NCBI RefSeq assembly: GCF_003334815.1
Contig: NZ_QOWO01000018.1
Origin: Escherichia coli
Lineage (GTDB): Bacteria > Pseudomonadota > Gammaproteobacteria > Enterobacterales > Enterobacteriaceae
DNA: 64,000 nucleotides
Reading direction: 5' to 3' (one strand)
Below are positions 24,338 to 62,271 of this stretch, piece by piece. Position 1 is the first letter of the stretch. The number at the start of each line of letters is the position of its first letter. Position numbers and translations under genes: made by a program. The notes below the pieces were generated by a model. It worked only from the letters and a program-made list of their open reading frames with translations, did not search any database and was not told the origin of the DNA.

Positions 24338-26431
24338 TTACATCAACGCCCCCATAATCTTCAACTCCAGCTCATCCGGCACTTCGTTATACGACAGCAC
24401 ATGCAGCCCCGGCGCAAACAACCTTGCATAACGCGCCAGCAAAGGGCGCAGCTGCGGTGGCACCAGCAGCACCGGGTCTTTCCCCGCCGCTTTCATCTGC
24501 TCTTTCACCTGTGGCATCGTACTCTGGAACTGGTTGAGCATATTCGGATCGACCGGCACGCTGTCGAGCATCACTTTCCCGCCCTGTTGCGCCTGATTCA
24601 CCACGTTGGTCAGCAGATTTTCCAGCTCATTATTCAGCGTATACACCGTCAGCTCCTGCTTGCGAACGAACGGATGGGTAATGCTGCGCCGCAATGCCAG
24701 GCGCACATCGGCCGCCAGCAGAATATGATCTTTCGTCACCGTGCTACTGGCGACCAGCACGGTGGCGATGGTGACGATATCGCGCAGGGAAACGCCTTCG
24801 GTCAGCAGCGTCCGGTACACTTTCAGCAACTGGCTGTAATTGAGCGCCGCGCTCAAATCTTCCGCCAGACGCGGTGCCGTCGACGATAAACGGTTATGCA
24901 ACTGCGTAATATCATCATAGTTAAACAAATCAGGAATATAGCTGCGCACAATCTTATTTACATGGGTAGCGATCACGCTGGCGCTGTCGATCACCTGATA
25001 CCCCATATTCAGCGCCTTCGCTTTCTGCGCCGCCTGGATCCAGGTGACCGGCATCCCGTACGCCGGGTCGTTCCCCTGCACGCCGTCAATCTCGCCGTAG
25101 GTTTCGCTGGAGGGCAGGGCCATCAGTTTATCCGCCGGAATATCCGCTTCATCAGCCTTTATGCCGTTGATGAAAATGGCGTACTGACTGGGCTTAAGGC
25201 GGAAGTTTTCCCGAATGCGGATCTCCGGCAGCAGCACGCCGTTGCCGTCAGAAATCACCTGCCGCACGCCGCGAATCCGCTGGGTGAGCGGGTTACCCTG
25301 TGCTTTGTCCACCAGCGCCACCAGTTTGTAACCGAGGCTTAAACTGATAGGCTCGATCAGCGGAATGGTTTCCCAACTGACCTGCTGCTCGCTGGTTTCG
25401 GTGATGGTGCGGGTCAGCGTTTCGAGGCTTTTCTCTTCCGCCTCCGCCGCCAGCGGCTGTTTGCTCATCCGCCAGCCGGTAAAACCAAGCAGGGCGCTGA
25501 ACAGCAAAAACGGCAGGTGCGGCATTCCCGGTACCACCGCCAGCACGAACATAATCCCGGTGGCGGTGTAGAGCACCGACGGGCTTGCCAGCAGCTGGTT
25601 ACGCACGTCATGGGCGATATCGCCGTTGTCGCTGACGCGGGTGACGATAATCGCCGCCGCGGTGGAGAGCAGCAGGGAAGGGATCTGCGCCACCAGGCCG
25701 TCGCCGATGGTCATCAGCACATACTGCTGGAAGGCAGCATCGGCGCTCAGGTTGTATTTGAAGATCCCGATACAGACGCCGCCGATCAGGTTGATCGCCA
25801 GAATCATCATCCCGGCGATGGCGTCCCCGCGCACAAACTTCGATGCCCCGTCCATCGCGCCGTAGAAATCGGCCTCGCTGGCAACATCTTTACGCCGGGT
25901 TTGCGCCTGCGCCTGGTTGATCAATCCGGCGTTAAGATCGGCGTCAATCGCCATCTGTTTGCCGGGCATCGCGTCTAAGGTAAAGCGGGCAGAAACCTCG
26001 GAAATACGCTCGGCCCCTTTGGTGACGACAATAAAGTTGATGATCATCAGGATGATAAACACCACGAAGCCGACGACAAAGTTGCCGCCGATCACCACCT
26101 GACCAAACGACTCAATCACCTTACCCGCCGCGCCCGCGCCGAGATGCCCGTGCAGCAGCACCACGCGCGTAGAAGCAACGTTAAGCGTCAGGCGCATTAA
26201 GGTGGTGATCAGCAAAATGGTCGGGAACAGGCTGAATTCCAGCGGTCGTTTCGCCGACACCGCCACCAGCAGCACCATCACCGCCAGCACAATGTTGAAG
26301 GTGAACAGAATATCCAGCAGCGCAGGCGGCAGCGGCAAAATAACCATCGCCAGAATACACAGGATCACCAGCGGCACGCCGAGATTGCCGCCGCGCAGCA
26401 GCGCGAGGAACGATTTAGTTGTTTTCGCCAT
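24338..26431 (-). CDS. lfhA: Lateral flagellar export apparatus protein, FlhA homologue
   Basis: 697-aa full-length FlhA-family protein (N-terminal TM domain, FHIPEP region). Confidence 0.85.
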   Translation of the reverse strand: MAKTTKSFLALLRGGNLGVPLVILCILAMVILPLPPALLDILFTFNIVLAVMVLLVAVSAKRPLEFSLFPTILLITTLMRLTLNVASTRVVLLHGHLGAGAAGKVIESFGQVVIGGNFVVGFVVFIILMIINFIVVTKGAERISEVSARFTLDAMPGKQMAIDADLNAGLINQAQAQTRRKDVASEADFYGAMDGASKFVRGDAIAGMMILAINLIGGVCIGIFKYNLSADAAFQQYVLMTIGDGLVAQIPSLLLSTAAAIIVTRVSDNGDIAHDVRNQLLASPSVLYTATGIMFVLAVVPGMPHLPFLLFSALLGFTGWRMSKQPLAAEAEEKSLETLTRTITETSEQQVSWETIPLIEPISLSLGYKLVALVDKAQGNPLTQRIRGVRQVISDGNGVLLPEIRIRENFRLKPSQYAIFINGIKADEADIPADKLMALPSSETYGEIDGVQGNDPAYGMPVTWIQAAQKAKALNMGYQVIDSASVIATHVNKIVRSYIPDLFNYDDITQLHNRLSSTAPRLAEDLSAALNYSQLLKVYRTLLTEGVSLRDIVTIATVLVASSTVTKDHILLAADVRLALRRSITHPFVRKQELTVYTLNNELENLLTNVVNQAQQGGKVMLDSVPVDPNMLNQFQSTMPQVKEQMKAAGKDPVLLVPPQLRPLLARYARLFAPGLHVLSYNEVPDELELKIMGALM

Positions 26432-27554
26432 CCAGTTTAAGCACCTCTTTGGGAATGGAAATATGTCTGTTCAGGGCCGGGCGCGGCTGTGCACCCTCGC
26501 GCCAGTGTTTCATTTGCAGGACGTAGGTCAGAACGTGGGCGATGGCCCGGTAAAGCTGAAACGGAATTTGCTGGTTCACCTGGGTGGTGTAGTAAACCGA
26601 GCGCGCCAGTCGCGGGAACTCGACCACTTCCACCTGATTCTCAGCGGCGACCTGGCGAATATAGAGGGCGATTTCATCGGTGCCTTTCGCCACCACAAAC
26701 GGCGCGGCGGCGCGCGACGAGTCATACTGCAACGCCACGGCGTAGTGGGTCGGGTTGGTGATCACCACGTTGGCTTTCGGCACCACTTTGCGAATTTGCC
26801 CCATCGCCAACTGCCGTTGCAGACGCCGCACGCGCGCCTTCACTTCCGGCTTGCCTTCCTGGTTTTTATACTCTTCTTTCAGCTCCTGTTTGGTCATCTT
26901 CAGCCCTTTGGTAAACAGGGCTTTCGCCAGCGGCACGTCGATTAACGCAAAGAAGATAAACAGGATGACAAAGTTGCGCATCACGCAGGCGTAGAGCGAT
27001 AAACCCTCATTCATCGCCAGTTTGAACGGTAGCGCCTGCAGGCCGAGAAAGGCGGCAAAGTTATTGCGCAGGCTTACCCACAGCATCACCAGCACCACCA
27101 CCGACTTCACCGTCATCTTTCCCGTTTCCGCCAGATGTTCACTGGAAAACAGCCGCCCAATGCCTTTTAACGGGCTGATTTTGCTGAAATCCGGGAGGAT
27201 TTTTTTCGGCAGAAACAGCCAGCCGCCGGGCACCAGCGAAGAGAGTAGCGCGGCAGCGGGCATCGGCAGCAAGGTGAGAATAAACTTGCCGAGTATTAAC
27301 AGGTGATGGCGCAGAAACTGGCCGATCACCTCCGGGTTATTAATCTCCTGCGCGTACTGATGCACGCTGATAAAACTCTCGCGCACAAAATCGGCATACC
27401 ACGGGAAGCTGCTGGAGATCACCACAAACGCCGCAAACAGGCTCGCCGCCAGCCCCATATCCTTCGAGCGCGGCAGTTGCCCCTCTTCACGCGCTTTACG
27501 CAGCTTTTGCGCCGAGGGTTTTTCTGTTTTTTCTTCGCTGCTGCTATCCGCCAT
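26415..27554 (-). CDS. lfhB: Lateral flagellar export switch protein, FlhB homologue
   Basis: 379-aa ORF with FlhB N-terminus (EKTEKPSAQKLRKAREEG) and NPTH autocleavage motif. Confidence 0.85.
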   Translation of the reverse strand: MADSSSEEKTEKPSAQKLRKAREEGQLPRSKDMGLAASLFAAFVVISSSFPWYADFVRESFISVHQYAQEINNPEVIGQFLRHHLLILGKFILTLLPMPAAALLSSLVPGGWLFLPKKILPDFSKISPLKGIGRLFSSEHLAETGKMTVKSVVVLVMLWVSLRNNFAAFLGLQALPFKLAMNEGLSLYACVMRNFVILFIFFALIDVPLAKALFTKGLKMTKQELKEEYKNQEGKPEVKARVRRLQRQLAMGQIRKVVPKANVVITNPTHYAVALQYDSSRAAAPFVVAKGTDEIALYIRQVAAENQVEVVEFPRLARSVYYTTQVNQQIPFQLYRAIAHVLTYVLQMKHWREGAQPRPALNRHISIPKEVLKLDGENN

Positions 27555-28326
27555 AGTGACCTTTCAGCGCGTCGAGTTGCTGCAACACAAAATTCGCCAG
27601 ATGCAGATAGTGATCCGGCAGGTTGTAGAGCAGGGTGGCAAAGCAGACCAGCCCCGCCAGCATGTTGATGGGAAAACCGAGTGAAAAAAGGTTCAGCGGC
27701 GGCGCAATGCGGTTGAGCAGGCCAAAGCAGCCCTGCACAATCAGCATGATAAAAGTGGTTGGCAGCGCCAGCAGCGATGCGGACGCCAGCACCCAGCTAA
27801 AGGCCAGCGCGATGGTGCGCAGGGTTTGCGGATGCAGCGCGTTGCCAATCGGCCAGTAGGTAAAGCCCTTATACAGCACACTCACCAGCAGCAGATGCCC
27901 GTCCATGGCAAAAAACAGCAGGATCGCGTAGACGTTGATGAGCTCCGCCAGCACGGTGGTCGATGCGCCACTGCTCGGGTCGTTCATCACCGCCATGCTC
28001 ATCCCCATATTGAACGAGAGAATTTGCCCGGCCAGCTGTAGCGCCAGAAACAAAAACTGAAACATCAGCCCGAATAACATGCCCCATAAAATTTGCTCCA
28101 CCGTCAGGATCAGGCTGTTGAGTGAAAGCAGGTCGTGGGGAATGGGATGCGGAATTAACGGCGTGATGATGATTGCCAGCGCCAGCGACAAAATAATCCG
28201 CACGCGCACGGTCAGGGCGCTGTTATCCAGCACTGGCACATAGCGCAGAAACGCCATAATGCGCACAAAGGGAAACCACAGCCCCAGCGCCAGATCCATC
28301 AGTTGCGTAACGTCGCTTGTGCGCAT
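27544..28326 (-). CDS. lfiR: Lateral flagellar export apparatus protein, FliR homologue
   Basis: Polytopic membrane protein; ATG at 28326 next to the lfiQ stop. Confidence 0.8.
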   Translation of the reverse strand: MRTSDVTQLMDLALGLWFPFVRIMAFLRYVPVLDNSALTVRVRIILSLALAIIITPLIPHPIPHDLLSLNSLILTVEQILWGMLFGLMFQFLFLALQLAGQILSFNMGMSMAVMNDPSSGASTTVLAELINVYAILLFFAMDGHLLLVSVLYKGFTYWPIGNALHPQTLRTIALAFSWVLASASLLALPTTFIMLIVQGCFGLLNRIAPPLNLFSLGFPINMLAGLVCFATLLYNLPDHYLHLANFVLQQLDALKGHYGG

Positions 28327-28327: not shown

Positions 28328-28600
28328 TTAATGCACCAGCAGGGCGGCCTGGGTAAACAGGTGAATGCAGAGATCATGCAACTGGATAATCATCCATTTG
28401 CCGCACACGCCCAGCACCACCAGCGTGACAATCAGCCTCGGCAAAAAGCTCAGGGTCTGTTCGTTAATCTGCGTTACCGCCTGGAACACGCTCACCAGCA
28501 GGCCGACCAGCAAACTCGGCACCACCAGTACCGAAACCAGCAAAATCACTACTTTTATGCCGCTGGCGACAATGTCGGCGGCAACGTCTACGGTCAACAT
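28328..28600 (-). CDS. lfiQ: Lateral flagellar export apparatus protein, FliQ homologue
   Basis: 90-aa two-TM protein typical of FliQ. Confidence 0.8.
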   Translation of the reverse strand: MLTVDVAADIVASGIKVVILLVSVLVVPSLLVGLLVSVFQAVTQINEQTLSFLPRLIVTLVVLGVCGKWMIIQLHDLCIHLFTQAALLVH

Positions 28601-28602: not shown

Positions 28603-29355
28603 TCAGCCCAGCCCCAGCCCGCGAATGCTGGTGGTGAGCGTGCCGATGGTCAGCGACCAGCCGTCGATCAGCACAAACAGCATCAGCTTAAAGGGCAGCG
28701 AAACAATCAGCGGCGACAGCATCATCATCCCCATCGCCATCAGTACGCTTGCGACAATCAGGTCGATAACCAGAAACGGGATGTAAATCATAAAGCCAAT
28801 CTGGAAAGCGGTTTTCAGCTCGCTCAACACATAGGCGGGCACCACGATAGAGAGATCCTGGTCGGCGGCATTGCCCTTCGCGCCTCCGATGGTCATGATT
28901 TGCGCCATCGCTTTTTTGTCGGTCTGCGCCAGCATAAAGCGTTTGAGTGGCGTCGCGGCGGTGCTTAACGCATCGGTCAGGGTAATCTGATCGTTTTCGA
29001 ACGGCACTACTGCGTGGTCGTAAATATTGAGCCAGATGGGGCGCATCACCAGCATGGTGAGGGAGAGCGCAATGCCAATCAGAATGCGGTTTGGCGGCGT
29101 TTGTTGCAGCCCTAGCGCCTGGCGCAGCAGCGACAGCACGATAATAAAGCGCGCAAAGCAGGTCATCATCAGCGCCATCGTCGGCAGCAAACCGACGAGG
29201 GTCATCAGAATCAGTACCTGAATTTTGACGCTGTACTCCTGAGTGTTGCCGTGGGTGACCACGTTAAGCAGCGCAATATCGCCGCCCTGGGCGATTGCCA
29301 GCGGCGCAAGCGCCAGCAGCCCAAGGCCCAGCGTCAGTTGAGTGCGGCGTTTCAT
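28603..29355 (-). CDS. lfiP: Lateral flagellar export apparatus protein, FliP homologue
   Basis: 250-aa ORF with signal peptide and FliP-like membrane core. Confidence 0.85.
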   Translation of the reverse strand: MKRRTQLTLGLGLLALAPLAIAQGGDIALLNVVTHGNTQEYSVKIQVLILMTLVGLLPTMALMMTCFARFIIVLSLLRQALGLQQTPPNRILIGIALSLTMLVMRPIWLNIYDHAVVPFENDQITLTDALSTAATPLKRFMLAQTDKKAMAQIMTIGGAKGNAADQDLSIVVPAYVLSELKTAFQIGFMIYIPFLVIDLIVASVLMAMGMMMLSPLIVSLPFKLMLFVLIDGWSLTIGTLTTSIRGLGLG

Positions 29356-29723
29356 GGTGCCAGGTCGTTGATATCGCGGGTGTTAAATTCCAGCACGCGC
29401 AGGCCGTACTTCTCGTTGACCACCACCACTTCCGCTTTGCCCAGCAGGATATTGTTCACTTTAATATCCAGCGGCTCCCCGGCGAGTTTATCCAGCTCAA
29501 TCACCGTGTCGTCGTCGATGTTAAGGAGGTCGGCTAACATGATCTCCACCGACGACACTTCCAGCGTTAAGGTCACCGGAATGCGTTTTAGCAGCGTCAT
29601 CGAGTCGGAAAAACGGTCTTCCAGGCGGGTGACCAGCGTTTCAGCGTCGGCGGATTTTGCGACAGGCGCAACTTCATCGGTGAGGCCAAAATCCCCGGCT
29701 AAAATATCTTCTTGCTTACTCAT
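29352..29723 (-). CDS. lfiN: Lateral flagellar motor switch protein, FliN homologue
   Basis: C-terminal SpoA/FliN domain (ELDKLAGEPLDIKVNNILLGKAEVVVVNEKYGLRV); ATG at 29723. Confidence 0.8.
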   Translation of the reverse strand: MSKQEDILAGDFGLTDEVAPVAKSADAETLVTRLEDRFSDSMTLLKRIPVTLTLEVSSVEIMLADLLNIDDDTVIELDKLAGEPLDIKVNNILLGKAEVVVVNEKYGLRVLEFNTRDINDLAP

Positions 29724-30567
29724 GGCTATTCTCATTTTTGCCCGCCAGCTCCGACAAAAACAGTTTGTCTTTGTCTTCCACAATCAGGGCGCTAAATAAT
29801 TCAGATTGCCCAATCGCCACCGGGAACGTTTCTCCCAGCGAGATGGGTAAAATATCCCCGGCTTTTATCTGCGTGAGATCCGCGACATTCATCGATAGCT
29901 CGGCGATTTTGACGTTCAGGGTCAGCGGCAGGGAGCGGATGATCTCTTTAATCAGGGCCGGTTTATTGACGGATTTCGCCACCTGCTGCGGTTTACTGTG
30001 CTCGCTGTGGCGGATCAGATTTAAAATAAAATCGGTGTGGGCGTCGTCGAGCAAAATACGAAAACAGCTCTCTTCATCGCCCGCAAGGGTAAAGGTTAAT
30101 TGATACGCCCAGTGGGTAATCACCGTGCTGCTGTCCAGCTTTAATTTCAGCGCAATACCGGAGGTTTGCAGATTAAATATCAGCGTGCAGATATCCAGCG
30201 CGAGTCGGTTCTTTAATCGTGTTTCGGTTTTGGTCGGCAGGCCGTTATGCGCTTTCGCCTCTTCAAGAGACGACTCCAGACCATAAAAATTGCCCAGCAG
30301 CATTAACAGCAAGGAGCGATCAATATCAAACGCCAGATGCCCGACCTGGGAAATCATTAGTTCAGCGTTTTTATTAATAATATCCATTTCGCAGCCAATC
30401 TTTTTTAAGGTGATATTGCTGCGATGCTTTTTGAGAAAGTAGCTGCCCAGATGCGAATCAATCACGTCAAAATTCCCCGTAAACAGGGTCGGCAGGTGAT
30501 GGTAGGGGCGTCCGAGCCGATTACCTTCTAATTTAAAGATGCCTGGCGTTTTACTGTACTTCAGCAT
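29716..30567 (-). CDS. lfiM: Lateral flagellar motor switch protein, FliM homologue
   Basis: 283-aa ORF, first gene of the lfiM-to-lfhA operon; FliM-like size and position. Confidence 0.75.
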   Translation of the reverse strand: MLKYSKTPGIFKLEGNRLGRPYHHLPTLFTGNFDVIDSHLGSYFLKKHRSNITLKKIGCEMDIINKNAELMISQVGHLAFDIDRSLLLMLLGNFYGLESSLEEAKAHNGLPTKTETRLKNRLALDICTLIFNLQTSGIALKLKLDSSTVITHWAYQLTFTLAGDEESCFRILLDDAHTDFILNLIRHSEHSKPQQVAKSVNKPALIKEIIRSLPLTLNVKIAELSMNVADLTQIKAGDILPISLGETFPVAIGQSELFSALIVEDKDKLFLSELAGKNENSHE

Positions 30568-30740
30568 GGCTTACTTTCTCTGCTGTAATGGTATGGGCGA
30601 TTTTGTGCACGCAAATCCGGCAGTGACACAAGGTGAGGTATTAAATAGAGGGGGAGTGAAAGGGGCAAATTATTAATAGGATGAAAAAATAATTAAATTA
30701 TTAAAGGGCTAGATATCAGGCATCGTCATAACACATTGCA

Positions 30741-30833
<93 letters not shown>

Positions 30834-30953: not shown

Positions 30954-31940
30954 ATGTCTGAACTTATTGCAACTGCCGCTTCCAGCATTAACGCTTTTAC
31001 TCTGGCAAAGCGTGTCGCCGCATTTAACGTGCCGGTGCTCATTCAGGGCGAAACCGGCGCGGGCAAAGAATGCGTGGCGAAATATATTCACACCGTAGCC
31101 TTTGGTGAAAATGATAACGCGCCCTATATCGGCGTGAACTGCGCAGCGATCCCGGAAAACATGCTGGAAGCTACATTATTTGGCTACGACAAAGGCGCAT
31201 TTACCGGCGCAATTGCCAGTGTGCCAGGAAAAATGGAACTAGCGAATAACGGCACCTTATTACTCGATGAAATTGGCGATATGCCGCTGGCGCTACAGGC
31301 CAAAATATTACGCGTATTGCAGGAGCAACAGGTTGAGCGATTAGGCAGCAACCGACAAATTAAACTCAATTTTCGCCTGATTGCCTGCACCAATAAAAAC
31401 CTTGAACAGGAAGTGGCTGCCGGGCGTTTTCGTGAAGATCTCTATTATCGTCTGGCGGTTATTCCTATTACCATGCCGCCACTGCGTGAACGTCTGAACG
31501 ATATTATTCCGCTGGCAGAGTCATTTATAAAAAAGTACTCCACGGTGCTGGTGAAAAATATCACCCTTTCAGAATCTACCCGCCGGGCGCTGCTCAATTA
31601 CCGCTGGCCCGGCAACGTGCGCCAGCTGGAGAACGCCATTCAGCGGGGAATGATTTTAAATCGCGACGGCGTGATTTACCCGGATGCCTTAGGCCTGCCG
31701 GAAACGGACGTTGCCGACCGCAGCGAACTGCAATGGCCTGTTCAGCCCGCCGTCCACATTGCCGAAACCAGCGATTTGGGCCAGCACGGACGAAGCGCCC
31801 AGTATCAATATATCGCTGACCTGATGCGTAAATATCAGGGCAACCGCAGCAAAATCGCCGACCTGTTAGGCATTACCCCGCGCGCACTGCGCTATCGACT
31901 GGCCTCCATGCGCAAGCAAGGTATCGAAGTTTTCTCCTGA
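30954..31940 (+). CDS. lafK: Sigma-54-dependent transcriptional activator (AAA+ domain plus C-terminal HTH; no receiver domain)
   Basis: Walker A GETGAGKE about 30 aa from the N-terminus, GAFTGA sigma-54 contact motif, C-terminal HTH (IADLLGITPRALRYRL). Confidence 0.85.
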   Translation: MSELIATAASSINAFTLAKRVAAFNVPVLIQGETGAGKECVAKYIHTVAFGENDNAPYIGVNCAAIPENMLEATLFGYDKGAFTGAIASVPGKMELANNGTLLLDEIGDMPLALQAKILRVLQEQQVERLGSNRQIKLNFRLIACTNKNLEQEVAAGRFREDLYYRLAVIPITMPPLRERLNDIIPLAESFIKKYSTVLVKNITLSESTRRALLNYRWPGNVRQLENAIQRGMILNRDGVIYPDALGLPETDVADRSELQWPVQPAVHIAETSDLGQHGRSAQYQYIADLMRKYQGNRSKIADLLGITPRALRYRLASMRKQGIEVFS

Positions 31941-31954: not shown

Positions 31955-32296
31955 ATGAGCATTACCACAATCAACAGCACCATGCAGGCGCAAATCATGC
32001 AGGACGTGCAGCGGATGCAGGCCAACGCCCAGGCGCCGGTGCTACCCGCCATGACCTTCAGTTCCACAGACCCGGACGTGTCGTTTAACCGCATTATGTA
32101 CGGCGCGCTTGGTCATGTTGATCAGTTCCAGCAGGTGGCGGAGCAGCAGCAAACGGCTGTCGACACGGGCAAAAGTGATGACCTGGCAGGTGCGATGATC
32201 GCCAGCCAGCAGGCGTCGCTCTCTTTCTCCGCGCTGGTGCAGGTGCGCAATAAAATCGCCACCGGGTTTAACGACCTGATGAGTATGTCGATCTAA
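31955..32296 (+). CDS. lfiE: Lateral flagellar hook-basal body protein, FliE homologue
   Basis: 113-aa ORF at the head of the FliE-J cluster. Confidence 0.75.
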   Translation: MSITTINSTMQAQIMQDVQRMQANAQAPVLPAMTFSSTDPDVSFNRIMYGALGHVDQFQQVAEQQQTAVDTGKSDDLAGAMIASQQASLSFSALVQVRNKIATGFNDLMSMSI

Positions 32297-37814: not shown

Positions 37815-37839
37815 AGTACTAAAACAGAGATGTATTTTC

Positions 37840-37930
<91 letters not shown>

Positions 37931-37931
37931 T

Positions 37932-40376: not shown

Positions 40377-40401
40377 GGTGTTTGGGTGAGTTAATGGGTG
40401 A

Positions 40402-46796: not shown

Positions 46797-46802
46797 CCGC
46801 AC

Positions 46803-47660: not shown

Positions 47661-47664
47661 GGCG

Positions 47665-47833: not shown

Positions 47834-47863
47834 ATAACTCACTGTATTTAAAACAGGCAGAAC

Positions 47864-49644: not shown

Positions 49645-49943
49645 TGAAAGTTAACGGCAGCGGCGGGATTGACGGCAGCGATGCGTTAATGGGGCCGAAG
49701 GTTCAGGCCAATGATATCAGGCAGGCCGCCGAACAGTTTGAGGCGATTTTTTTACGCAACATGCTGAAAGAGATGCGTAAAACCAACGAGTTGTTTGATT
49801 CGAAAGATAACCCATTTAACAGCGATTCGGTGCGCATGATGCAGGGATTTTATGACGATGAGTTGTGTAACACCCTGGCGCAGCAGCACGGGATTGGGAT
49901 TGCGGCGATGATTGTGAAGCAGTTGTCGCCGAAGCATAGGTGA
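49644..49943 (+). CDS. lfgJ: FlgJ homologue, rod-binding domain only (no muramidase domain)
   Basis: 99-aa ORF with FlgJ N-terminal motif (AAEQFEAIFLRNMLKEMR). Confidence 0.7.
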   Translation: MKVNGSGGIDGSDALMGPKVQANDIRQAAEQFEAIFLRNMLKEMRKTNELFDSKDNPFNSDSVRMMQGFYDDELCNTLAQQHGIGIAAMIVKQLSPKHR

Positions 49944-49951
49944 AGCTCCGA

Positions 49952-50175
<224 letters not shown>

Positions 50176-50246
50176 GTTTACGGAATTTAAGAATCCCCAT
50201 CTTCACGCCGCTTTTAACCGGCACGATTTACCGGTAAGGATCCAAC

Positions 50247-53561: not shown

Positions 53562-53564
53562 TTA

Positions 53565-53615
53565 TCGGTAGGCCGGATAAGACGCGTTTAGCGTCGCATC
53601 CGGCATATATTGGCA
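53565..53615. repeat. Single REP element between convergent lafW and lafZ
   Basis: gtaggccggataagacgcgtttagcgtcgcatccggca. Confidence 0.7.
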
Positions 53616-54462: not shown

Positions 54463-54947
54463 AGTTGAGTTTACCTTAGCAAGGGATAAATGTTTCCTGA
54501 TAGTGCTTTGCATAAAGCACAGTCTTATACGTCCCTGAGAAGATGATTTTTCTGCGTGATAATTAATATTTTATGGTAATAGGATTATTCTTAATCACTA
54601 TATGGCGTGGAAATGTAACGAAATGACAGGACAGGTACAATAGCCAAATGTGTACTATTTGCAACGCAATGTAAATTTTGGCATCAGTACATTGAGAAGA
54701 AAACGCGTTAATTGATGGTAATCTTAACTATATCAAGCGTTTGATAAAGACATATTTTGATACCTGGCCATGTGGCAGATATTGCTAATAATCTTTTTAT
54801 CTGAATTTAAACTCTGCTTTTTTTAGCTAAAAGTGGCATCAGATAAACCGCAGTGAAATTTTTTTAACGGCGGTTTTAAGTTTGCTCCCGAGGTGTCGTT
54901 TTTACAGGGTATCGAAACGAAAACGATTAATCCCAAGGAGCAGTATC

Positions 54948-55862
54948 ATGTTATCTATTAACACCAATAACGCCTCAATGGCCGCCGTTAATGCAATCAG
55001 CAAAAGCAGCTCTTCTCTGTCTACATCTATGGAACGCCTGGCGACAGGTAACCGGATTAACTCTTCTGCCGATGACGCCGCAGGCAAACAAATTGCTAAC
55101 CGTCTGACAGCACAGTCCAGCGGTATGGATGTTGCGCTGAGCAACATCAATGATGCCACCGCGATGCTGCAAACCGCCGACAGCATGTTCGACGAAATGT
55201 CTGACGTGCTGGGTCGTATGAAAGACCTGTCAACTCAGGCAGCGAACGGCACCTACAGCGACGACGATCTGCAGGCGATGCAGGACGAATACGACGAACT
55301 GGGCCAGCAGATGTCTGACATGCTGCAAAACACCACCTACGGCGGCACCAACCTGTTCGGTGTTTCCGGCACCAGCAACACCGGTACTGACGGCCTGTTC
55401 CAGAGCGCGGTAACTTTCCAGGTGGGCGCGGAATCTTCCGACACCATGACCGTGAACATCTCTAGCCAACTGAACACGCTGGTGACTGACCTTTCTGCTA
55501 TCAGCAACTCCTTCAGTGCGGATCAGGCAGACACCACAGGCACCGCAGGCGTTTCTGGCGGTACTGAACTGACTGCGTCTGGCTCGGCTAACCAGATGAT
55601 CACCAGCATTTCTACCGCGATGGATGATGTTTCGCAGATCCAGTCCAAGCTGGGTGCGTCTATCAACCGTCTGAACGACACGGCTAATAACCTGACCAGT
55701 ATGCAGGACAACACCGAAGTTGCTATCGGTAACATCATGGATACCGACTACGCTACGGAAGCGTCCAATATGACCAAACAGCAGGTGCTGATGCAGACCG
55801 GCATCACCATGCTGAAACAGTCCAACAGCATGTCCAGCATGGTTTCCAGCCTGCTGCAGTAA
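54948..55862 (+). CDS. lafA: Lateral flagellin
   Basis: 304-aa product MLSINTNNASMAAVNAISKSS...RLATGNRINSSADDAAG... with conserved flagellin termini; AAGGAG RBS; variable Ser/Thr-rich central region. Confidence 0.9.
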   Translation: MLSINTNNASMAAVNAISKSSSSLSTSMERLATGNRINSSADDAAGKQIANRLTAQSSGMDVALSNINDATAMLQTADSMFDEMSDVLGRMKDLSTQAANGTYSDDDLQAMQDEYDELGQQMSDMLQNTTYGGTNLFGVSGTSNTGTDGLFQSAVTFQVGAESSDTMTVNISSQLNTLVTDLSAISNSFSADQADTTGTAGVSGGTELTASGSANQMITSISTAMDDVSQIQSKLGASINRLNDTANNLTSMQDNTEVAIGNIMDTDYATEASNMTKQQVLMQTGITMLKQSNSMSSMVSSLLQ

Positions 55863-55869
55863 TGGCGGA

Positions 55870-55978
55870 CTTGCCGGATGCGGCGTGAACGCCTTATCCG
55901 GCCTACAAAATATTGCAAATTCAATATATTGCAGAAACCTTGTAGGCCTGATAAGCGCAGCGCATCAGGCAGTGTTGC
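55870..55978. repeat. REP pair (BIME) downstream of lafA
   Basis: Two inverted REP palindromes. Confidence 0.7.
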
Positions 55979-55991: not shown

Positions 55992-56020
55992 CTCAACACC
56001 GCCTGCGGGCGGTGTTGTTC
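55992..56020 (+). terminator. Rho-independent terminator downstream of lafA
   Basis: caacaccgcc-tgcg-ggcggtgttg hairpin followed by a T-rich tract. Confidence 0.55.
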
Positions 56021-56105: not shown

Positions 56106-56120
56106 TGGCACGCCTTTTGC
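56106..56120 (+). promoter_or_regulatory. Sigma-54 promoter upstream of lafB
   Basis: Perfect TGGCAC-N5-TTGC (tggcacgccttttgc), 33 bp upstream of the lafB start. Confidence 0.7.
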
Positions 56121-56152: not shown

Positions 56153-57469
56153 ATGATCAACCCAAGAACCATTGCGCAAGAAATCGCTTATGCAGATGTC
56201 GCCACTCAGGCGGCAAACTTGCAGGAGAAGCAAACGGAGCTGGATGCCGAAAGCAGCGGCCTGGACTCGCTCAGCTCGGCGTTGAGCGATTTCCAGAGCG
56301 CCGTGGATGCGCTAAACAGCGATACCGACGGCCCGGTGACCTTCGCTGCCACCAGCAATAATGACTCGGCGACCGTTTCCGCTAACTCGCAGGCGCAGGC
56401 GGGAAGCTACTCGTTTTTCGTTGAACAACTGGCGCAGGGGCAGCAGACCACGTTCAGTATGGGTGATGACACCTTTTCTGCGACGGGGACGTTCGAAATG
56501 ACCATGGGCGACAGCACCATGGATATTGATCTGGCGGCGGCGGATCAGAACGGTGACGGCGACGGTTTTATCGACGCCAGTGAACTGGTGAATGCGATTA
56601 ACGACTCCGATGACAATCCGGGCGTGTCGGCTGCGCTGGTAAAAACCGACGGCACCACCACGATTATGCTCACCTCGGATAGCACCGGGGCGCAGAGCGC
56701 GTTTTCGGTGAGCGTAACGGGGCATGATGCCAGCAACGATAGCGCCAGCGCGCCCGTTGCCACGGATGTTTCCTCCGCTCAGGACGCGATTATTCATCTC
56801 GGTAGCGCCACAGGGCCTGAGATCACCAACAGCAGCAATACATTTGATGATGTGATCCCCGGCGTCACCATGACTTTCACCGAAGTCAGCGATTCTGACA
56901 GCGATCTCACTACCTTTAACATCAGCGAAGATTCCAGCGCCAGTCAGGAGAAAGTACAGACCTTTGTCGATGCCTATAACACCTTGATTGATACGGTTGA
57001 TTCACTGACTACTCATGGTGATGACAGTACCAGCGCCGGGGTATTTGCAGGCGACGCCGGACTCAATTCACTGGCGAACCAGCTCGATGACATCGCCCAT
57101 GCCAACTACAACGGCGTGTCGATTGTTGACTATGGCATCACGCTTGATTCTCACGGCCACTTACAGATTGACTCCGACCAGTTCAACGACGAAATGGCGA
57201 AAAATCCTGACGGTCTGACCTCTATTTTCGTTGGCGACAACAGCATGGTGGCGCAGATGGACGACCTGATTAACACCTACACGGACTCCAGCAACGGCAT
57301 CATCACCCTGCGCCAGCAGAACATTGACGATCAGATGAGCAAAATTCAGGACGAAGGCGATCAGCTTACCGATACCTATAACGCCAACTACGACCGTTAT
57401 CTCGAGGAGTACACCAACACGCTGGTCGAGGTGTACACCATGAAAGCCAGCATGGCGGCATTCGCGTAA
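56153..57469 (+). CDS. lafB: Lateral flagellar filament cap protein, FliD homologue (HAP2)
   Basis: 438-aa ORF; FliD-like coiled-coil termini and Ser/Thr/Asp-rich central domain. Confidence 0.8.
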   Translation: MINPRTIAQEIAYADVATQAANLQEKQTELDAESSGLDSLSSALSDFQSAVDALNSDTDGPVTFAATSNNDSATVSANSQAQAGSYSFFVEQLAQGQQTTFSMGDDTFSATGTFEMTMGDSTMDIDLAAADQNGDGDGFIDASELVNAINDSDDNPGVSAALVKTDGTTTIMLTSDSTGAQSAFSVSVTGHDASNDSASAPVATDVSSAQDAIIHLGSATGPEITNSSNTFDDVIPGVTMTFTEVSDSDSDLTTFNISEDSSASQEKVQTFVDAYNTLIDTVDSLTTHGDDSTSAGVFAGDAGLNSLANQLDDIAHANYNGVSIVDYGITLDSHGHLQIDSDQFNDEMAKNPDGLTSIFVGDNSMVAQMDDLINTYTDSSNGIITLRQQNIDDQMSKIQDEGDQLTDTYNANYDRYLEEYTNTLVEVYTMKASMAAFA

Positions 57470-57491: not shown

Positions 57492-57884
57492 ATGTACCAA
57501 GTACAGGACGGCTATTCACAATATAAAGAGATCGATCTCGCGGCGCGTACTGCGGCGGCATCGCCTCTGGAACTGGTGCTGGTGCTGTTTTCTGGCCTGA
57601 TGGACGAGCTGGAACGCGCCAAAAGCCATATTGAAGGGCGGCGTTTCGAGAAGAAAGCCCAGAGCATCAATAAATGCATCGACATTCTCAATGCGCTTAC
57701 CAGTTCGCTGGAGTTTGAAACCGGCGGTGAGCTGGTGGTCAACCTTTCGCGACTCTATGACCACTGCGTTTACCGATTGTATGAGGCCAGCGGCGAATTA
57801 TCGGCAGAGAAAATCGATGAAGTGATGCTGATCTTAAGCAACCTGCGCGAAGGCTGGGAAGGGCTTTCGGGCAAGCTGGGTTAA
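57492..57884 (+). CDS. lafC: Flagellin chaperone, FliS homologue
   Basis: 130-aa ORF with FliS-family core (ELVLVLFSGLMDEL...LSRLYDHCVYRL). Confidence 0.8.
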   Translation: MYQVQDGYSQYKEIDLAARTAAASPLELVLVLFSGLMDELERAKSHIEGRRFEKKAQSINKCIDILNALTSSLEFETGGELVVNLSRLYDHCVYRLYEASGELSAEKIDEVMLILSNLREGWEGLSGKLG

Positions 57885-57888: not shown

Positions 57889-58200
57889 ATGGAAAAACAA
57901 CGCAGGCAACTTTTCGCACTGGTCGAGGCGATGAATGAAGCCCTCGACAAGCAACGCTGGCGACGCCTTCCGGCACTGCATCAGCAGTTGATGCGCCAGT
58001 TTCACGATTACGCGGCGGCGGAAACCGACGCGGCGCAGTTCTGTGCGGTAAAGGCGCATTTGTACGGCGCGTTTAATGCCCTGATTAAACGGCGCGAGCA
58101 GCGCGCAGAAGTGTTGAAGGCGCGTATGGAACAGCATCAGCGGCATCAGGAAGGTGTGCTCGCCTACTCAATTGTTAATTTACTTTCGGAGAAGTCATGA
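57889..58200 (+). CDS. lafD: Small helical protein (possible FliT-like chaperone)
   Basis: 103-aa ORF following the FliS homologue; position analogous to fliT. Confidence 0.5.
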   Translation: MEKQRRQLFALVEAMNEALDKQRWRRLPALHQQLMRQFHDYAAAETDAAQFCAVKAHLYGAFNALIKRREQRAEVLKARMEQHQRHQEGVLAYSIVNLLSEKS

Positions 58201-59258
58201 ATCCGGCATTGCTTGCCACGCTCGGAACGCTTGCGGAAACCGCTTCGTTGAAGGCGGATATTTTACCGCCGGTGAGCGGTGAAAACGCGCCCGCGTTTAC
58301 CCTGCCGAAAATGGCGGTCGCGGCGGTGGCGGAGCGCGTTCATAGCGCTAAAACCAGTCAGCAACAGGCGACGCGCCCGCAGGAGAACGATCCGGTGGCG
58401 ATGCAGGCGCTAATGGCGCTGTTACTTCCACAACCTGCCGCGCCGCATCAGCACACGCCGCAGCCGCGAAACGTCGCAACATCGCCGGTTATCCAGCAAT
58501 TGACGAAAGCGGTGGTGCAAAACGCGCCGCAACGCCAGACGCAACAGCAGGAACTCACGCCGTTGCCGCCGCAGTTGCAGGAACTGATCAGTCAGTTGCC
58601 ACAGGCGAAGCCCGAACAGCAGGCCAGACTGGCGACTTACGCCAGTGAAGATTTACATGCCATTGCGCCGACGCAGCCGCGCGTTTCAACACAGCCAGCT
58701 CGCCCAAAACCTGAACTAACCCGTGTGACCGCGCGCCCGCAGGTCGAGCGTAAAACGGAAAAAGTGCCGGACAGCGAACCGGTTATTGCGCGTGCGGTGT
58801 TGCAGGTTAAGACGCCGGAGCTGCTCAGCGAGCATCAGGAGATTGTCGCCAAACCAGCCACGCTTTCGATGGACGAACTGGGCGAAAAACTGACGACGCT
58901 TTTGAAAGATCAGATCCACTTTCAGCTCAACAAACAACAGCAGATCTCCACCATCCGTCTCGATCCACCGTCGCTTGGCAAGCTCGAGATCGCCGTACAA
59001 CTCGACAACGGCAAACTGATGGTGCACATCGGCGCGAACCAAAGTGAAGTTTGCCGCGCGTTACAGCAGTTTAGCGACGATCTCCGCCAGCATCTGACGG
59101 CGCAAAATTTTATGGAGGTGAACGTACAGGTCTCCTCCGAAGGGCAGTCGCAGCAACAACAACAGTCGGGCCATCAGCAGGAAGAGGTGAGTGCCGCCTT
59201 ACAGCTTGATGATGCGCCTCAATTTCAACAGAACGAATCCGTTTTGATCAAAGTGTAA
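58197..59258 (+). CDS. lafE: Hook-length control protein, FliK homologue
   Basis: 353-aa Pro/Gln-rich protein with FliK-like C-terminal domain. Confidence 0.7.
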   Translation: MNPALLATLGTLAETASLKADILPPVSGENAPAFTLPKMAVAAVAERVHSAKTSQQQATRPQENDPVAMQALMALLLPQPAAPHQHTPQPRNVATSPVIQQLTKAVVQNAPQRQTQQQELTPLPPQLQELISQLPQAKPEQQARLATYASEDLHAIAPTQPRVSTQPARPKPELTRVTARPQVERKTEKVPDSEPVIARAVLQVKTPELLSEHQEIVAKPATLSMDELGEKLTTLLKDQIHFQLNKQQQISTIRLDPPSLGKLEIAVQLDNGKLMVHIGANQSEVCRALQQFSDDLRQHLTAQNFMEVNVQVSSEGQSQQQQQSGHQQEEVSAALQLDDAPQFQQNESVLIKV

Positions 59259-59265: not shown

Positions 59266-59733
59266 ATGAAGAAAATCGTGGTGGCGGGCGTGGTCAGCGC
59301 CGTTCTGGCGTTGGTGGTGGGGGCCGGAGCTGGATGGGGTGTCTGGCATCATTATGCCGGAAAAGGAAAACCGACTGCCGCCGCGCAGACGGAAACGGTG
59401 GAAACCCTGGATGAAAGCAAAAGCGTGTTTGTGACGTTGCCGGAAACCATTGTCACGCTGCATGACAACAACGGCGCGGACCATTATTTGTCGGCGGAAT
59501 TAGTGATGGTGGTCGCCAGTGACAAAGAAGCGGAAAAAATAAAACATCAGGAGCCGCTGTATCAAAGTATTGCGGTTGAATGCCTGACGGAAATGAAATT
59601 TGAAGATTTGCGTGGCATGAAAATATCCGCCATCCGCAAACTCATTTCTGACGCGTTAAAGAAAGATCTTCAGCGTCGCAAAATGAGCGCACCGTATAAG
59701 GATTTGCTGGTGAAAAAAGTGGTCTTCCAGTAA
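59266..59733 (+). CDS. lafF: Flagellar basal-body-associated protein, FliL homologue
   Basis: 155-aa ORF with a single N-terminal TM helix and FliL-like domain. Confidence 0.7.
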   Translation: MKKIVVAGVVSAVLALVVGAGAGWGVWHHYAGKGKPTAAAQTETVETLDESKSVFVTLPETIVTLHDNNGADHYLSAELVMVVASDKEAEKIKHQEPLYQSIAVECLTEMKFEDLRGMKISAIRKLISDALKKDLQRRKMSAPYKDLLVKKVVFQ

Positions 59734-59752: not shown

Positions 59753-60469
59753 ATGCTACAGGATGTATTCGAGTCGGAAGAATTTGCTGCCGCGCCGGTA
59801 TTAACCCCGCAGCAGGAGAGCCACTACTTGCAGGCCTATTTACCGTTGGTGCGTAAAGTGGTGCGGCAACTTGCCCCGCAGTGTAATTGCATTATTGATC
59901 GTCAGGATATGGAACAAACGGCGTTAATGGGGCTGCTTAATGCCATCCGTCGCTACGGGCTGCCGGACGAAGGTTTTGCGGGCTATGCCGTGCACCGTAT
60001 TCGCGGCGCGATCCTGGATGAGCTGCGCGCTCTCGACTGGCGACCGCGCCAGCTGCGACAGAAATATCATCAGATGAAAGATCTGATTCGCGAAACGCGC
60101 AAAAAACTGGGGCACGAACCGGAGTGGTCAGAACTGGCCGTGGAAGGGATCTCGCATGAAGATTATCTCGAATATCAGCAACTGGAAGGGGCGGAAACGC
60201 TCGCCAGCCTGGACGAACTGCTGAACGGCGAAGGGCCTGGCATTCTGCTTGCTGGCAGGGAGCTGGAAGATCAGTTTGTCACCCAGCAAATGCTGCAACA
60301 GGCGCTTTCACAATTAAGCGAAAAAGAGCAACTGATCCTCTCCATGTATTACCAGCATGAGATGAATCTCAAAGAGATTGCGCTGGTATTAGGGCTAACC
60401 GAGGCCCGAATTTGTCAACTGAATAAACAGATCGCGCAGAAAATTCGTGATTTTGTCTATCCGAATTAA
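59753..60469 (+). CDS. lafS: Lateral flagellar sigma factor (sigma-28/FliA family)
   Basis: 238-aa ORF with sigma-70 region 2 and C-terminal region 4 HTH (LKEIALVLGLTEARICQL). Confidence 0.85.
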   Translation: MLQDVFESEEFAAAPVLTPQQESHYLQAYLPLVRKVVRQLAPQCNCIIDRQDMEQTALMGLLNAIRRYGLPDEGFAGYAVHRIRGAILDELRALDWRPRQLRQKYHQMKDLIRETRKKLGHEPEWSELAVEGISHEDYLEYQQLEGAETLASLDELLNGEGPGILLAGRELEDQFVTQQMLQQALSQLSEKEQLILSMYYQHEMNLKEIALVLGLTEARICQLNKQIAQKIRDFVYPN

Positions 60470-60481: not shown

Positions 60482-61345
60482 ATGCAAAAAATATTAGGTT
60501 TACTGGTGGTGCTCGGCTGCGTATTTGGCGGTTATTTTGAAGCGGGCGGGCAATTAGTGGCTATCTGGCAACCGGCGGAAATGATCATTATTTTGGGTGC
60601 CGGTTTCGGGGCGATGATTATTGGTAACCCGAAACATGTGCTGAAAGAGATTGCCCATCAAATTAAAGGCGTAATCAGTAAAAAACAGCTCGGGCCGGAG
60701 TTTCAGCGCCAGCTATTAATGTGCCTGTATGAGTTACTCGAAATGGTGCAAAACGGTGGTCTGCGCATGCTGGATCAACATATTGAGCAACCGGAAGAGA
60801 GCACCATTTTCCAGAAATACCCGCTGGTGTTAACCCAGAAGCGGCTGGTGACCTTTATTGCCGATAACTTTCGCCTGATGGCGATGGGTAAAATCGACGC
60901 CCATGAACTGGAAGGCATTCTCGATCAGGAACTGGACACCGCGGAAGAGTCGCTGCTAACGCCGTCGCGCTCGCTGCAACGTACCGCCGAAGCGATGCCG
61001 GGGTTTGGCATTTGTGCGGCGGTGTTGGGCATCATCATCACCATGCAGTCGATTGACGGCTCTATCGCCCTGATTGGCCTGAAAGTGGCGGCAGCGCTGG
61101 TGGGGACATTTTTAGGCGTCTTTATCTGCTACTGCCTGATGGACCCACTCGCCAACGCCATGGAACAACAGGCGCGGGCAGAACATTCTTTGCTGGAATG
61201 CGTGCGTACCGTGCTGGAGGCGCAGGCAGGCGGCAAACCGACGCTGCTGGCGGTGGACGCCGGGCGTAAGCTACTGCATCTGGCGTCCAAACCGACCTTC
61301 GCCAACCTCGACGCGTGGGTGAATGCGATGCTGGAGCAAGAATAA
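60482..61345 (+). CDS. lafT: Lateral flagellar motor stator protein, MotA homologue
   Basis: 287-aa four-TM protein with MotA-like cytoplasmic loop. Confidence 0.8.
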   Translation: MQKILGLLVVLGCVFGGYFEAGGQLVAIWQPAEMIIILGAGFGAMIIGNPKHVLKEIAHQIKGVISKKQLGPEFQRQLLMCLYELLEMVQNGGLRMLDQHIEQPEESTIFQKYPLVLTQKRLVTFIADNFRLMAMGKIDAHELEGILDQELDTAEESLLTPSRSLQRTAEAMPGFGICAAVLGIIITMQSIDGSIALIGLKVAAALVGTFLGVFICYCLMDPLANAMEQQARAEHSLLECVRTVLEAQAGGKPTLLAVDAGRKLLHLASKPTFANLDAWVNAMLEQE

Positions 61346-61347
61346 GC

Positions 61348-62271
61348 ATGAGAAAGACGGGTAACCGCCGCGATCGTGGGGCAAAAACCACCATCGTCCG
61401 GCGGCAGATCAAAAAGAATCATGCCGGGCACCACGGCGGGGCGTGGAAGGTGGCGTTCGCCGACTTTACTTTGGCAATGATGGCGCTGTTTATGACGCTG
61501 TGGATTGTCAACAGCGTCAGTAAATCCGAGCGTGAAAGCATTATCGCCGCGCTGCACGGGCAGTCGATTTTTAACGGTGGTGGGCTGTCGCCGTTAAATA
61601 AAATCAGCCCGTCTCATCCGCCAAAACCTGCCACCGTGGCGGTGCCGGAAGAGACGGAGAAAAAAGCGCGTGATGTGAATGAGAAAACGGCGCTGCTGAA
61701 GAAGAAATCCGCCACCGAGCTTGGTGAGCTGGCAACCAGTATCAACACCATTGCCCGTGATGCGCATATGGAAGCGAATCTGGAGATGGAGATTGTTCCC
61801 CAGGGATTACGCGTGCTGATTAAAGACGACCAGAACCGCAATATGTTTGAACGCGGCAGCGCGAAGATTATGCCGTTCTTTAAAACGCTGCTGGTGGAGC
61901 TCGCGCCAGTGTTCGACTCGCTCGATAATAAAATTATTATTACCGGGCATACCGATGCGATGGCCTACAAAAACAATATCTACAACAACTGGAACCTTTC
62001 GGGTGACCGCGCGCTTTCGGCTCGTCGGGTGCTGGAAGAGGCCGGAATGCCGGAAGATAAAGTGATGCAGGTAAGCGCAATGGCGGACCAGATGCTGCTG
62101 GATTCCAAAAATCCGCAAAGCGCGGGCAACCGGCGCATTGAGATTATGGTGCTGACCAAAAGTGCGTCCGATACGCTGTATCAATACTTTGGTCAGCATG
62201 GGGATAAAGTGGTGCAGCCGCTGGTGCAAAAGCTGGATAAGCAGCAGGTGCTTTCGCAGCGAACGCGTTAA
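61348..62271 (+). CDS. lafU: Lateral flagellar motor stator protein, MotB homologue (OmpA-like C-terminus)
   Basis: ATG at 61348; N-terminal TM helix, C-terminal OmpA-like peptidoglycan-binding motif (ITGHTD...NWNLSGDRALSARRVL). Confidence 0.8.
   Translation: MRKTGNRRDRGAKTTIVRRQIKKNHAGHHGGAWKVAFADFTLAMMALFMTLWIVNSVSKSERESIIAALHGQSIFNGGGLSPLNKISPSHPPKPATVAVPEETEKKARDVNEKTALLKKKSATELGELATSINTIARDAHMEANLEMEIVPQGLRVLIKDDQNRNMFERGSAKIMPFFKTLLVELAPVFDSLDNKIIITGHTDAMAYKNNIYNNWNLSGDRALSARRVLEEAGMPEDKVMQVSAMADQMLLDSKNPQSAGNRRIEIMVLTKSASDTLYQYFGQHGDKVVQPLVQKLDKQQVLSQRTR

Follow-up and report, generated by a model that had tools for sequence, protein, structure and literature searches.

A complete Flag-2 lateral-type flagellar locus of Escherichia coli at the site of the K-12 lfhA'-'lafU scar

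Does the DNA found between rayT and dinB in some strains of Escherichia coli, at the place where K-12 has the pseudogenes lfhA' and 'lafU, encode a complete second flagellar system, and is such a system likely to be functional? The locus, named Flag-2, was reportedly described in E. coli 042 by Ren et al. in 2005. We addressed the question with a stretch of 64,000 nucleotides from contig NZ_QOWO01000018.1 (assembly GCF_003334815.1), called the window hereafter, to which all coordinates refer. Flag-2 occupies positions 24338-62271, from the end of lfhA on the minus strand to the end of lafU on the plus strand, and a map of open reading frames (ORFs) of positions 22000-64000 showed a dense series of long ORFs across this interval. 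We transferred the RefSeq annotation of strain FORC_081 (NZ_CP029057.1), to which positions 19223-64000 (44.8 kb) could be aligned without gaps and with 11 mismatches, all of them single-nucleotide polymorphisms (SNPs). This gave 42 collinear genes between rayT and dinB. An earlier inspection of the same letters (the sequence-only reading) had announced about 40 collinear genes; collinearity and coordinates were exact, and the number is 42. Thirty-nine of them are core Flag-2 genes, which form, in this order, the clusters lfhAB-lfiRQPNM-lafK-lfiEFGHIJ (14 genes), lfgNMABCDEFGHIJKL (14 genes) and lafWZABCDEFSTU (11 genes), all intact, and the three others are genes of flagellin modification (tagD-like, family 2 glycosyltransferase (GT2) and lafV). 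The same architecture of three clusters and 39 core genes has been described for Flag-2 (PMC6993521). The window thus contains a complete, uninterrupted E. coli Flag-2 lateral-type flagellar locus (Table 1). Its G+C content is 55.5%, versus about 50% in the flanks. Earlier publications have covered the locus and its architecture, the prevalence of Flag-2, the scar of K-12 and also intact copies (Ren 2005; De Maayer 2020; Kakkanat 2015), so that this is a correct annotation and not a discovery.

The products comprise a type III export apparatus, MS, C, L and P rings, an ATPase complex, rod, hook, hook-associated/junction proteins, cap, flagellin and chaperones, as well as dedicated regulators and a stator: LafS (sigma-28), LfgM (anti-sigma), LafK (sigma-54 activator) and the MotAB-type pair LafT/LafU. 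Profile coverage thus confirmed every class of component that had been listed as making up a full second flagellar apparatus. All 42 ORFs started with ATG or GTG, had no internal stop and ended with a stop codon, and each ORF with a recognisable family was covered end to end by its NCBIfam or Pfam model (FlhA/B, FliR/Q/P/N/E/F/G/H/I/J, FlgN, FlgM, FlgA, FlgB-L, LafA, FliD, FliS, FliL, FliA, MotA and LafU). A search for damage in the 42 genes, based on the coverage of profiles, on gene-by-gene alignment to 042 and on the SNPs relative to FORC_081, found none. Since the lengths also matched those in 042, the statement that no flagellar gene is frameshifted or truncated was found to be correct. 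At lfiI codon 35774-35776 the window has CAG (Gln45), versus TAG in FORC_081 (Q45*, annotated as 'internal stop'), which indicates that inactivation of Flag-2 by single hits is ongoing among very close relatives. Among five other annotated loci that we inspected, three (AH21, 22AR0010 and CUVET21-PYO5) were free of pseudogenes, and 042 and FORC_081 had one lesion each.

We also considered whether the genes could be those of the primary, peritrichous system (Flag-1), which is paralogous to Flag-2 and has the same protein families and the same architecture. Beyond these shared family names, nothing was found in favour of such an assignment. Identity to the K-12 proteins was as low as 45% for LfhA (versus FlhA) and 37% for LfhB (versus FlhB), and K-12 lacks the Flag-2 region yet keeps its primary flhBA at a separate locus. 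There is no flhDC within the locus, where LafK and sigma-54 would exert control in place of FlhDC. Furthermore, LafA, LafU and LafS passed the cut-offs of lateral or Flag-2-specific NCBIfam models, and the locus is found in only 23.6% of the genomes (see below). Assignment to the primary system is therefore refuted, and neither of the objections that the sequence-only reading had raised against itself (overlooked stop codons or frameshifts, and genes of the primary system) was borne out.

Several products deserve comment. LfiM starts with MLKYSKTPG and is devoid of a CheY-binding peptide of the LSQxEIDALL type, and its FliM middle domain was not detected with Pfam. Because of the missing peptide, the motor is probably blind to CheY, in agreement with the divergent, non-chemotactic C-rings of lateral motors (PMC8042155). 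No fliO is encoded in the locus, lfiN and lfiP overlapping by 4 nt. The absence of FliO and of the muramidase half of FlgJ is usual for Flag-2-type loci; together with the short LfiM, it suggests that switching and peptidoglycan penetration differ from those of Flag-1 or make use of host functions. LafK aligned to residues 120-445 of 454 of FlbD and 7-319 of 329 of PspF, with visible GAFTGA and Walker A motifs, while neither profile searches nor inspection of the sequence revealed a receiver domain, from which it follows that LafK should be active once made. The regulator LafZ showed a weak match to CadC and a hydrophobic segment at about residues 153-173. As to the stator, both components passed their models (MotA1 and LafU/MotB), and the motif AFADFT of LafU holds the conserved channel Asp of MotB. 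LfhA was 98.4% identical to its 042 counterpart. No family could be assigned to LafW and LafD with NCBIfam or Pfam, and the identities of these two proteins and of LfiM rest mainly on gene position. LafW was 96.6% identical to 042 LafW with a ratio of nonsynonymous to synonymous substitution rates (dN/dS) of 0.079, which denotes purifying selection. By eye, its C-terminus (…SSQTVRSLLG) resembles the C-terminal end of flagellar axial proteins. The content of variable region 1 (VR1: TagD, GT2 and LafV) is identical to that described previously (PMC6993521).

Candidate sigma-54 promoters were present upstream of lfgB, lafB and lafV, the first having also been reported for PCN033 (PMC4578781). All three sites were conserved in the window, 042, 22AR0010 and CUVET21-PYO5, whose loci are about 5% divergent, and the lafV site was identical in all four. 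The lafV site suggests that the regulon of LafK includes the flagellin-modification genes of VR1, namely lafV and the glycosyltransferase gene. With the pattern TAAG(T/A)(T/A)T, a spacer of 11-13 nt and G(C/T)CG(C/T)TTT, we found sigma-28-like sites upstream of lafA, lfgM and lfgK; for the lfgK site, the pattern gave no match in CUVET21-PYO5. The corresponding units, lafA, lfgMN and lfgKL, are those that depend on FliA_L in Plesiomonas shigelloides (PMC11242183). The conserved sigma-54 and putative sigma-28-like promoters are in keeping with a cascade from LafK to LafS, as in lateral flagella. The best-scoring intrinsic terminator in our scan followed lafA, and the regions upstream of lafK and lafA were AT-rich.

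From these elements the following sequence of events can be proposed. Expression of lafK would be switched on by a signal, perhaps through the adjacent ToxR-like LafZ or, alternatively, by relief of silencing at the AT-rich regions upstream of lafK and lafA. LafK, with the sigma-54 of the host, would then fire three -24/-12 promoters: that of lfgB for rod, hook and rings, that of lafB for cap, chaperones, hook-length control, LafS and stator, and that preceding lafV and the glycosyltransferase gene for methylation and glycosylation of flagellin. Once completed, the hook-basal body would export the anti-sigma factor LfgM, thereby freeing LafS for transcription of lafA, lfgMN and lfgKL, and the resulting filaments would be turned by the stator, presumably of the proton type.

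Comparison of the window with 042 gave a dS of 0.176, a dN of 0.0102 and a dN/dS of 0.058 over 41 genes. The per-gene ratio did not exceed 0.23 in any Flag-2 gene (0.016 for dinB). This points to strong purifying selection since the window and 042 diverged and argues against a long-dead relic; a system kept by purifying selection is expected to be functional in nature. We consider it probable that the intact, self-contained Flag-2 system of the window follows a LafK to LafS cascade, is selectively maintained and is silent under standard laboratory conditions. Its functional status is best read as that of a system maintained by selection and expressed only under certain conditions. Of the orthologous systems, that of Plesiomonas functions in swarming, and that of Yersinia enterocolitica is expressed at 20 °C (cited in PMC6993521 and PMC11420993); 78% of the flag-2-positive Enterobacterales have all 39 core genes (De Maayer et al., PMC6993521).

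A number of observations weigh against this conclusion. In EC958, a strain with intact lfgC, no LafA was detected at 28 or 37 °C, either in LB broth or in soft agar, and a fliC mutant of the strain did not move, with no Flag-2 motility (PMC4637896); the statement that Flag-2 function is poorly demonstrated in E. coli was accordingly correct, and we found no demonstration of Flag-2 filaments or Flag-2-dependent motility in any E. coli in the literature that we searched. Flag-2 has been repeatedly lost or broken, with a scar in 75% of the genomes, a frameshift in 042 and a nonsense mutation in FORC_081. Assembly may depend on host functions, LfgJ being devoid of its muramidase domain and FliO being absent. 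No convincing sigma-54 promoter was found before lfiM and lafK, so that no input could be assigned to the top of the cascade, and sigma-70 consensus scans performed no better than on shuffled sequence. The sigma-28-like sites are consensus matches only, and missense defects may go undetected in an analysis of sequence alone.

Most of these facts are also those expected if Flag-2 were a cryptic relic, with intact ORFs but a flagellum that is no longer built in E. coli, for example through loss of the inducing circuit or of an accessory factor, and that awaits decay or deletion. The silence and non-motility of EC958, the scar in 4072 of 5426 genomes, the independent lesions in 042 lfgC and FORC_081 lfiI, the short LfgJ, the missing FliO and the failure of our scans to reveal a recognisable promoter logic for lafK can all be understood in this way. 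Such a relic is nevertheless difficult to reconcile with a dN/dS of 0.058 across 41 genes at a dS of 0.18, a value incompatible with long-term neutrality, with promoters kept across divergent lineages, with the absence of pseudogenes in three of the five other inspected loci and with a prevalence of about 24% maintained across phylogroups, and we regard it as rather improbable. On the strength of cargo genes that the variable regions contain in other taxa, De Maayer et al. (PMC6993521) proposed that the apparatus could be functional but serve mainly in protein secretion, adhesion or interaction with the immune system and not in locomotion. The lack of chemotaxis coupling in LfiM would agree with this, but we found no candidate effector cargo here: VR1 contains only flagellin-modification genes and variable region 2 (VR2) is empty. 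Moreover, a complete stator with its channel Asp, FliL, hook-length control and a cap, all under strong constraint, point to a rotating filament, which makes a non-locomotory organelle very improbable. A conditionally expressed, selectively maintained flagellum remains the interpretation that we prefer.

How does the window relate to K-12, in which the locus is missing? In MG1655 the Flag-2 site, between rayT and dinB, is taken up by the pseudogenes lfhA' and 'lafU, and this genome aligned on both sides, to window positions 18980-26041 (99.97%) and 61500-64000 (99.96%). Annotation and alignment were thus in agreement with the reduction of the locus to an lfhA'-'lafU scar in K-12, as had been stated. 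At the K-12 junction AAAGTTGAT is joined to TGTCAACAG, with a microhomology of 3 bp (GAT) within an imperfect repeat matching at 11 of 16 positions, and the end points of the deletion lie within 26036-26047 and 61494-61505 of the window. In about 9,560 flanking bases, the junction zone aside, two differences were seen between K-12 and the window (at 19346 and 24811), and FORC_081 agrees with K-12 in both cases. MG1655 has the haplotype of the window minus about 35.46 kb.

With an internal coding segment (lfiF-lfiI) as probe, we found Flag-2 in 1281 of 5426 complete E. coli genomes (23.6%), and the contiguous deletion scar was present in 4072 of them (75%), carriers and scars together accounting for nearly all E. 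coli. Published figures are 20-24% of carriers, the rest being scarred (PMC6993521 and PMC4578781). Six sampled scars that were up to 6.5% divergent in lfhA' shared an identical junction, which argues for a single deletion event. The scars did not form a clade, as scar and intact alleles were interleaved across lineages. The K-12 scar differed by 0.1% from the intact lfhA of the window versus 5.8% from the Nissle scar, and the intact locus of CUVET21-PYO5 was 1.3-1.5% away from the scars of Nissle and of the avian pathogenic E. coli APEC 16-1068. The AH02 scar was a mosaic, identical to K-12 over its last 300 nt and 3.7% different overall, and an A/G SNP at 12 nt from the junction segregated among scars as well as among intact loci. 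To explain this sharing of haplotypes, we favour an exchange of scar and intact alleles by homologous recombination, accompanied by patchy mismatch repair; recurrent deletion at the same site is unlikely in view of the weak repeat.

One may tentatively go further and propose that the K-12 scar derives precisely from the haplotype of the window and that the presence or absence of Flag-2 is an old polymorphism, moved between lineages by homologous recombination and possibly under balancing or frequency-dependent selection, and not a matter of simple ancestral retention or one-way loss; we consider this possible, with the odds somewhat against it. If it is true, the allele of the window would be the natural donor for the isogenic restoration of Flag-2 into K-12. 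The sequence-only reading had called the locus the ancestral intact state. This is true of the gene content, but it does not follow that the lineage of the window has retained the locus vertically, since haplotypes are common to scar and intact alleles. With flanks that hardly differ from those of MG1655, the cluster could be restored by P1 transduction or recombineering, which makes this intact copy in a K-12-like background convenient for testing the role of Flag-2 in E. coli. The usefulness of this copy as an experimental substrate comes from these flanks, whereas it is not special as an intact copy, since 23.6% of the genomes carry the locus and lfgC-intact copies have already been published.

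The surroundings of the locus are also listed in Table 1. Repetitive extragenic palindromic (REP) sequences, arranged as bacterial interspersed mosaic elements (BIMEs), were found in almost every intergenic spacer of Flag-2, which adjoins the REP-associated transposase gene rayT. The 35-nt REP consensus occurred 10 times in the window versus none expected by chance, and Rfam matches to naRNA4 and ES036 fell on these elements, several of them at gathering score. A difference of 118 bp in length from most near-identical strains was considered as a possible gene deletion and rejected; it corresponds to BIME copy number in the lfgJ-lfgK spacer, whose length is 303 bp in the window, compared with 421 bp in AH21 and 175 bp in 042. 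At 40410-40545, in the gap that separates the glycosyltransferase gene from lafV, we noticed by eye a G+C-rich inverted pair, CCCTCACCCCAACCCTCTCCCACAGGGAGAGGG ... CCCCTTTGGGGAGAGGGTTAGGGTGAGGG, which presumably resembles boxC-type repeats. The left part of the window comprises aspU, dnaQ and aspV, followed by a low-GC island (8128-15358) that contains a fragment of ISAs1 and remnants of type VI secretion, namely Hcp (10901-11383) and VasL and RHS fragments. The island was about 7 kb shorter than its FORC_081 counterpart, and tRNA and BLAST checks showed that positions 1-19222 of the window are not collinear with FORC_081. Toxin-antitoxin pairs lie on both sides of Flag-2, yafQ-dinJ on the left (21941-22482) and yafN, downstream of dinB, on the right (63449-63742 onwards). 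In reference annotations yafN is accompanied by yafO, and a third pair (RelE/helix-turn-helix (HTH)), inside Flag-2, is present in 042 and absent from the window.

Table 1. Positions of the Flag-2 genes, candidate regulatory sites and neighbouring features in the window
Feature	Position	Strand	Remarks
tRNA-Asp aspU	125-201		
tRNA-Asp aspV	8128-8204		at low-GC island
rayT	23617-24114		left neighbour of Flag-2
lfhA, FlhA-type export gate	24338-26431	-	697 residues; TIGR01398, 775 bits, profile 3-677 of 678
lfhB, FlhB-type export switch	26415-27554	-	379 residues; TIGR00328, profile 1-348 of 348
lfiR (FliR)	27544-28326	-	TIGR01400 full-length; length as in 042
lfiQ (FliQ)	28328-28600	-	TIGR01402 full-length; length as in 042
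lfiP (FliP)	28603-29355	-	TIGR01103 full-length; length as in 042
lfiN, C-ring	29352-29723	-	FliN domain, profile 2-75 of 77
lfiM, C-ring	29716-30567	-	C-terminal FliMN_C domain only (Pfam, 1.1e-06)
lafK, sigma-54 enhancer-binding activator	30954-31940	+	328 residues; AAA+ sigma-54 domain and C-terminal HTH
lfiE (FliE)	31955-32296	+	profile full-length
lfiF (FliF)	32301-33947	+	profile full-length
lfiG (FliG)	33925-34935	+	profile full-length
lfiH (FliH)	34939-35649	+	profile full-length
lfiI (FliI)	35642-36979	+	profile full-length
lfiJ (FliJ)	36982-37416	+	profile full-length
VR1, between lfiJ and lfgN	37419-41484	mixed	tagD-like, GT2, lafV
tagD-like cytidylyltransferase	37419-37814	+	TIGR01518, 2e-33
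GT2 glycosyltransferase	37932-40376	-	Pfam Glycos_transf_2, 2.4e-17; weak CDP-glycerol glycerophosphotransferase match
lafV, FliB-like methylase	40555-41484	-	NF038110 FliB, 3e-11, under model cut-off
sigma-54-like promoter, upstream of lafV	41520-41534	-	CGGCAC-N5-TTGC; one mismatch
lfgN	41612-42040	-	Pfam FlgN, 7e-18
lfgM, anti-sigma-28	42053-42331	-	TIGR03824 FlgM, 1-97 of 98
sigma-28-like promoter, upstream of lfgM	42370-42397	-	TAAAGTTT...ACCGCTTT; conserved in four loci
lfgA	42412-43149	-	TIGR03170 FlgA
sigma-54 promoter (candidate), 37 nt upstream of lfgB	43179-43193	+	TGGCAC-N5-TTGC; exact match
lfgB	43231-43566	+	profile full-length
lfgC	43569-44000	+	143 residues, intact; TIGR01395 covered
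lfgD	44000-44713	+	profile full-length
lfgE	44857-46059	+	profile full-length
lfgF	46059-46796	+	profile full-length
lfgG	46875-47660	+	profile full-length
lfgH	47864-48529	+	profile full-length
lfgI	48544-49644	+	profile full-length
lfgJ	49644-49943	+	99 residues; rod-binding domain only, without muramidase domain
sigma-28-like promoter, upstream of lfgK	50188-50215	+	TAAGAAT-N12-GCCGCTTT; window, AH21, 042, 22AR0010
lfgK	50247-51623	+	profile full-length
lfgL	51638-52567	+	profile full-length
lafW, conserved Flag-2 protein	52584-53561	+	325 residues; no NCBIfam/Pfam family
lafZ, ToxR/CadC-like membrane-anchored winged-helix regulator	53620-54462	-	280 residues; Pfam Trans_reg_C, 3.6e-13, residues 25-97
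sigma-28-like promoter, upstream of lafA	54877-54902	+	TAAGTTT-N11-GTCGTTTT; consensus match, conserved in five loci
lafA, lateral flagellin	54948-55862	+	304 residues; NF033376, 667.8 bits (cut-off 440), profile 1-304 of 304
intrinsic terminator (predicted), after lafA	55994-56017	+	10-bp stem with 7 GC pairs, then TTCTTTCT
sigma-54 promoter (candidate), 33 nt upstream of lafB	56106-56120	+	TGGCAC-N5-TTGC; exact match
lafB/FliD	56153-57469	+	cap; profile full-length
lafC/FliS	57492-57884	+	profile full-length
lafD	57889-58200	+	no family match
lafE/FliK	58197-59258	+	hook-length control
lafF/FliL	59266-59733	+	profile full-length
lafS, sigma-28	59753-60469	+	NF009091, 447 bits (cut-off 339)
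lafT/MotA	60482-61345	+	TIGR03818 (MotA1), 1-281 of 282
lafU/MotB	61348-62271	+	NF005273, 578.6 bits (cut-off 383)
dinB	62342-63397		right neighbour of Flag-2
segment deleted in K-12 MG1655	26042-61499		about 35.46 kb
REP/BIME spacers	24115-24337, 30730-30830, 37840-37925, 44720-44812, 46800-46840, 47661-47850, 49950-50170, 53562-53605, 55863-55970		

Compared with Flag-1, Flag-2 is clustered and not dispersed, and it has no FlhDC, no FliO, a single-domain FlgJ and a FliM without CheY-binding peptide. It is closer to the lateral systems of Vibrio parahaemolyticus and Aeromonas hydrophila (Laf) and to the lateral cluster of Plesiomonas shigelloides, which are second systems encoded by a single cluster with a hierarchy leading from LafK (sigma-54) to sigma-28 and which also have, as here, a short lateral flagellin, a MotAB-type stator and a divergent C-ring. 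Lateral systems of this type drive swarming with filaments that are induced on surfaces or by viscosity; function has been demonstrated for them in these genera, in contrast to Flag-2 in E. coli. The LafK of the window differs from theirs by the absence of the N-terminal receiver-like domain, and the accessory genes motY and maf-5 are missing from Flag-2 loci (PMC4637896). Its LafA scored 668 bits with the enterobacterial model NF033376, much more than with the second LafA model, NF038071 (280 bits, under the cut-off of 365).

Alignment to 042 Flag-2 and to the K-12 lfhA-lafU region had been suggested as a check in the sequence-only reading, and gave collinearity at about 95% identity with the former and matching flanks with the latter. 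In 042 (NC_017626.1, 284682-323159) the locus lies at the same rayT-dinB site, with the same order and orientation of all 42 shared genes and 94.6-96.6% nucleotide identity in collinear blocks over the whole locus. The 042 proteins were 90-100% identical to those of the window and equal in length or at most 9 residues apart, with the sole exception of lfgC, which is annotated as frameshifted in 042 and is intact in the window. The RelE/HTH pair of 042 lies between lafW and lafZ (44 genes versus 42 here), i.e. in VR2, which is an empty 58-bp spacer in the window, and the two loci also differ in the REP/BIME content of their spacers. The ST131-like (sequence type 131) locus of 22AR0010 was about 5.7% divergent in lfhA and had three extra ORFs in VR1. 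Copies of Flag-2 with intact lfgC have been published for the ST131 strain EC958 (PMC4637896) and for the porcine extraintestinal pathogenic strain PCN033 (PMC4578781). Both resemble the window in having an intact lfgC, a LafK of full length and, ahead of lfgB and lafB, sigma-54 sites, and they differ from it by their phylogroup haplotype, the allele of the window being the one with K-12-identical flanks.

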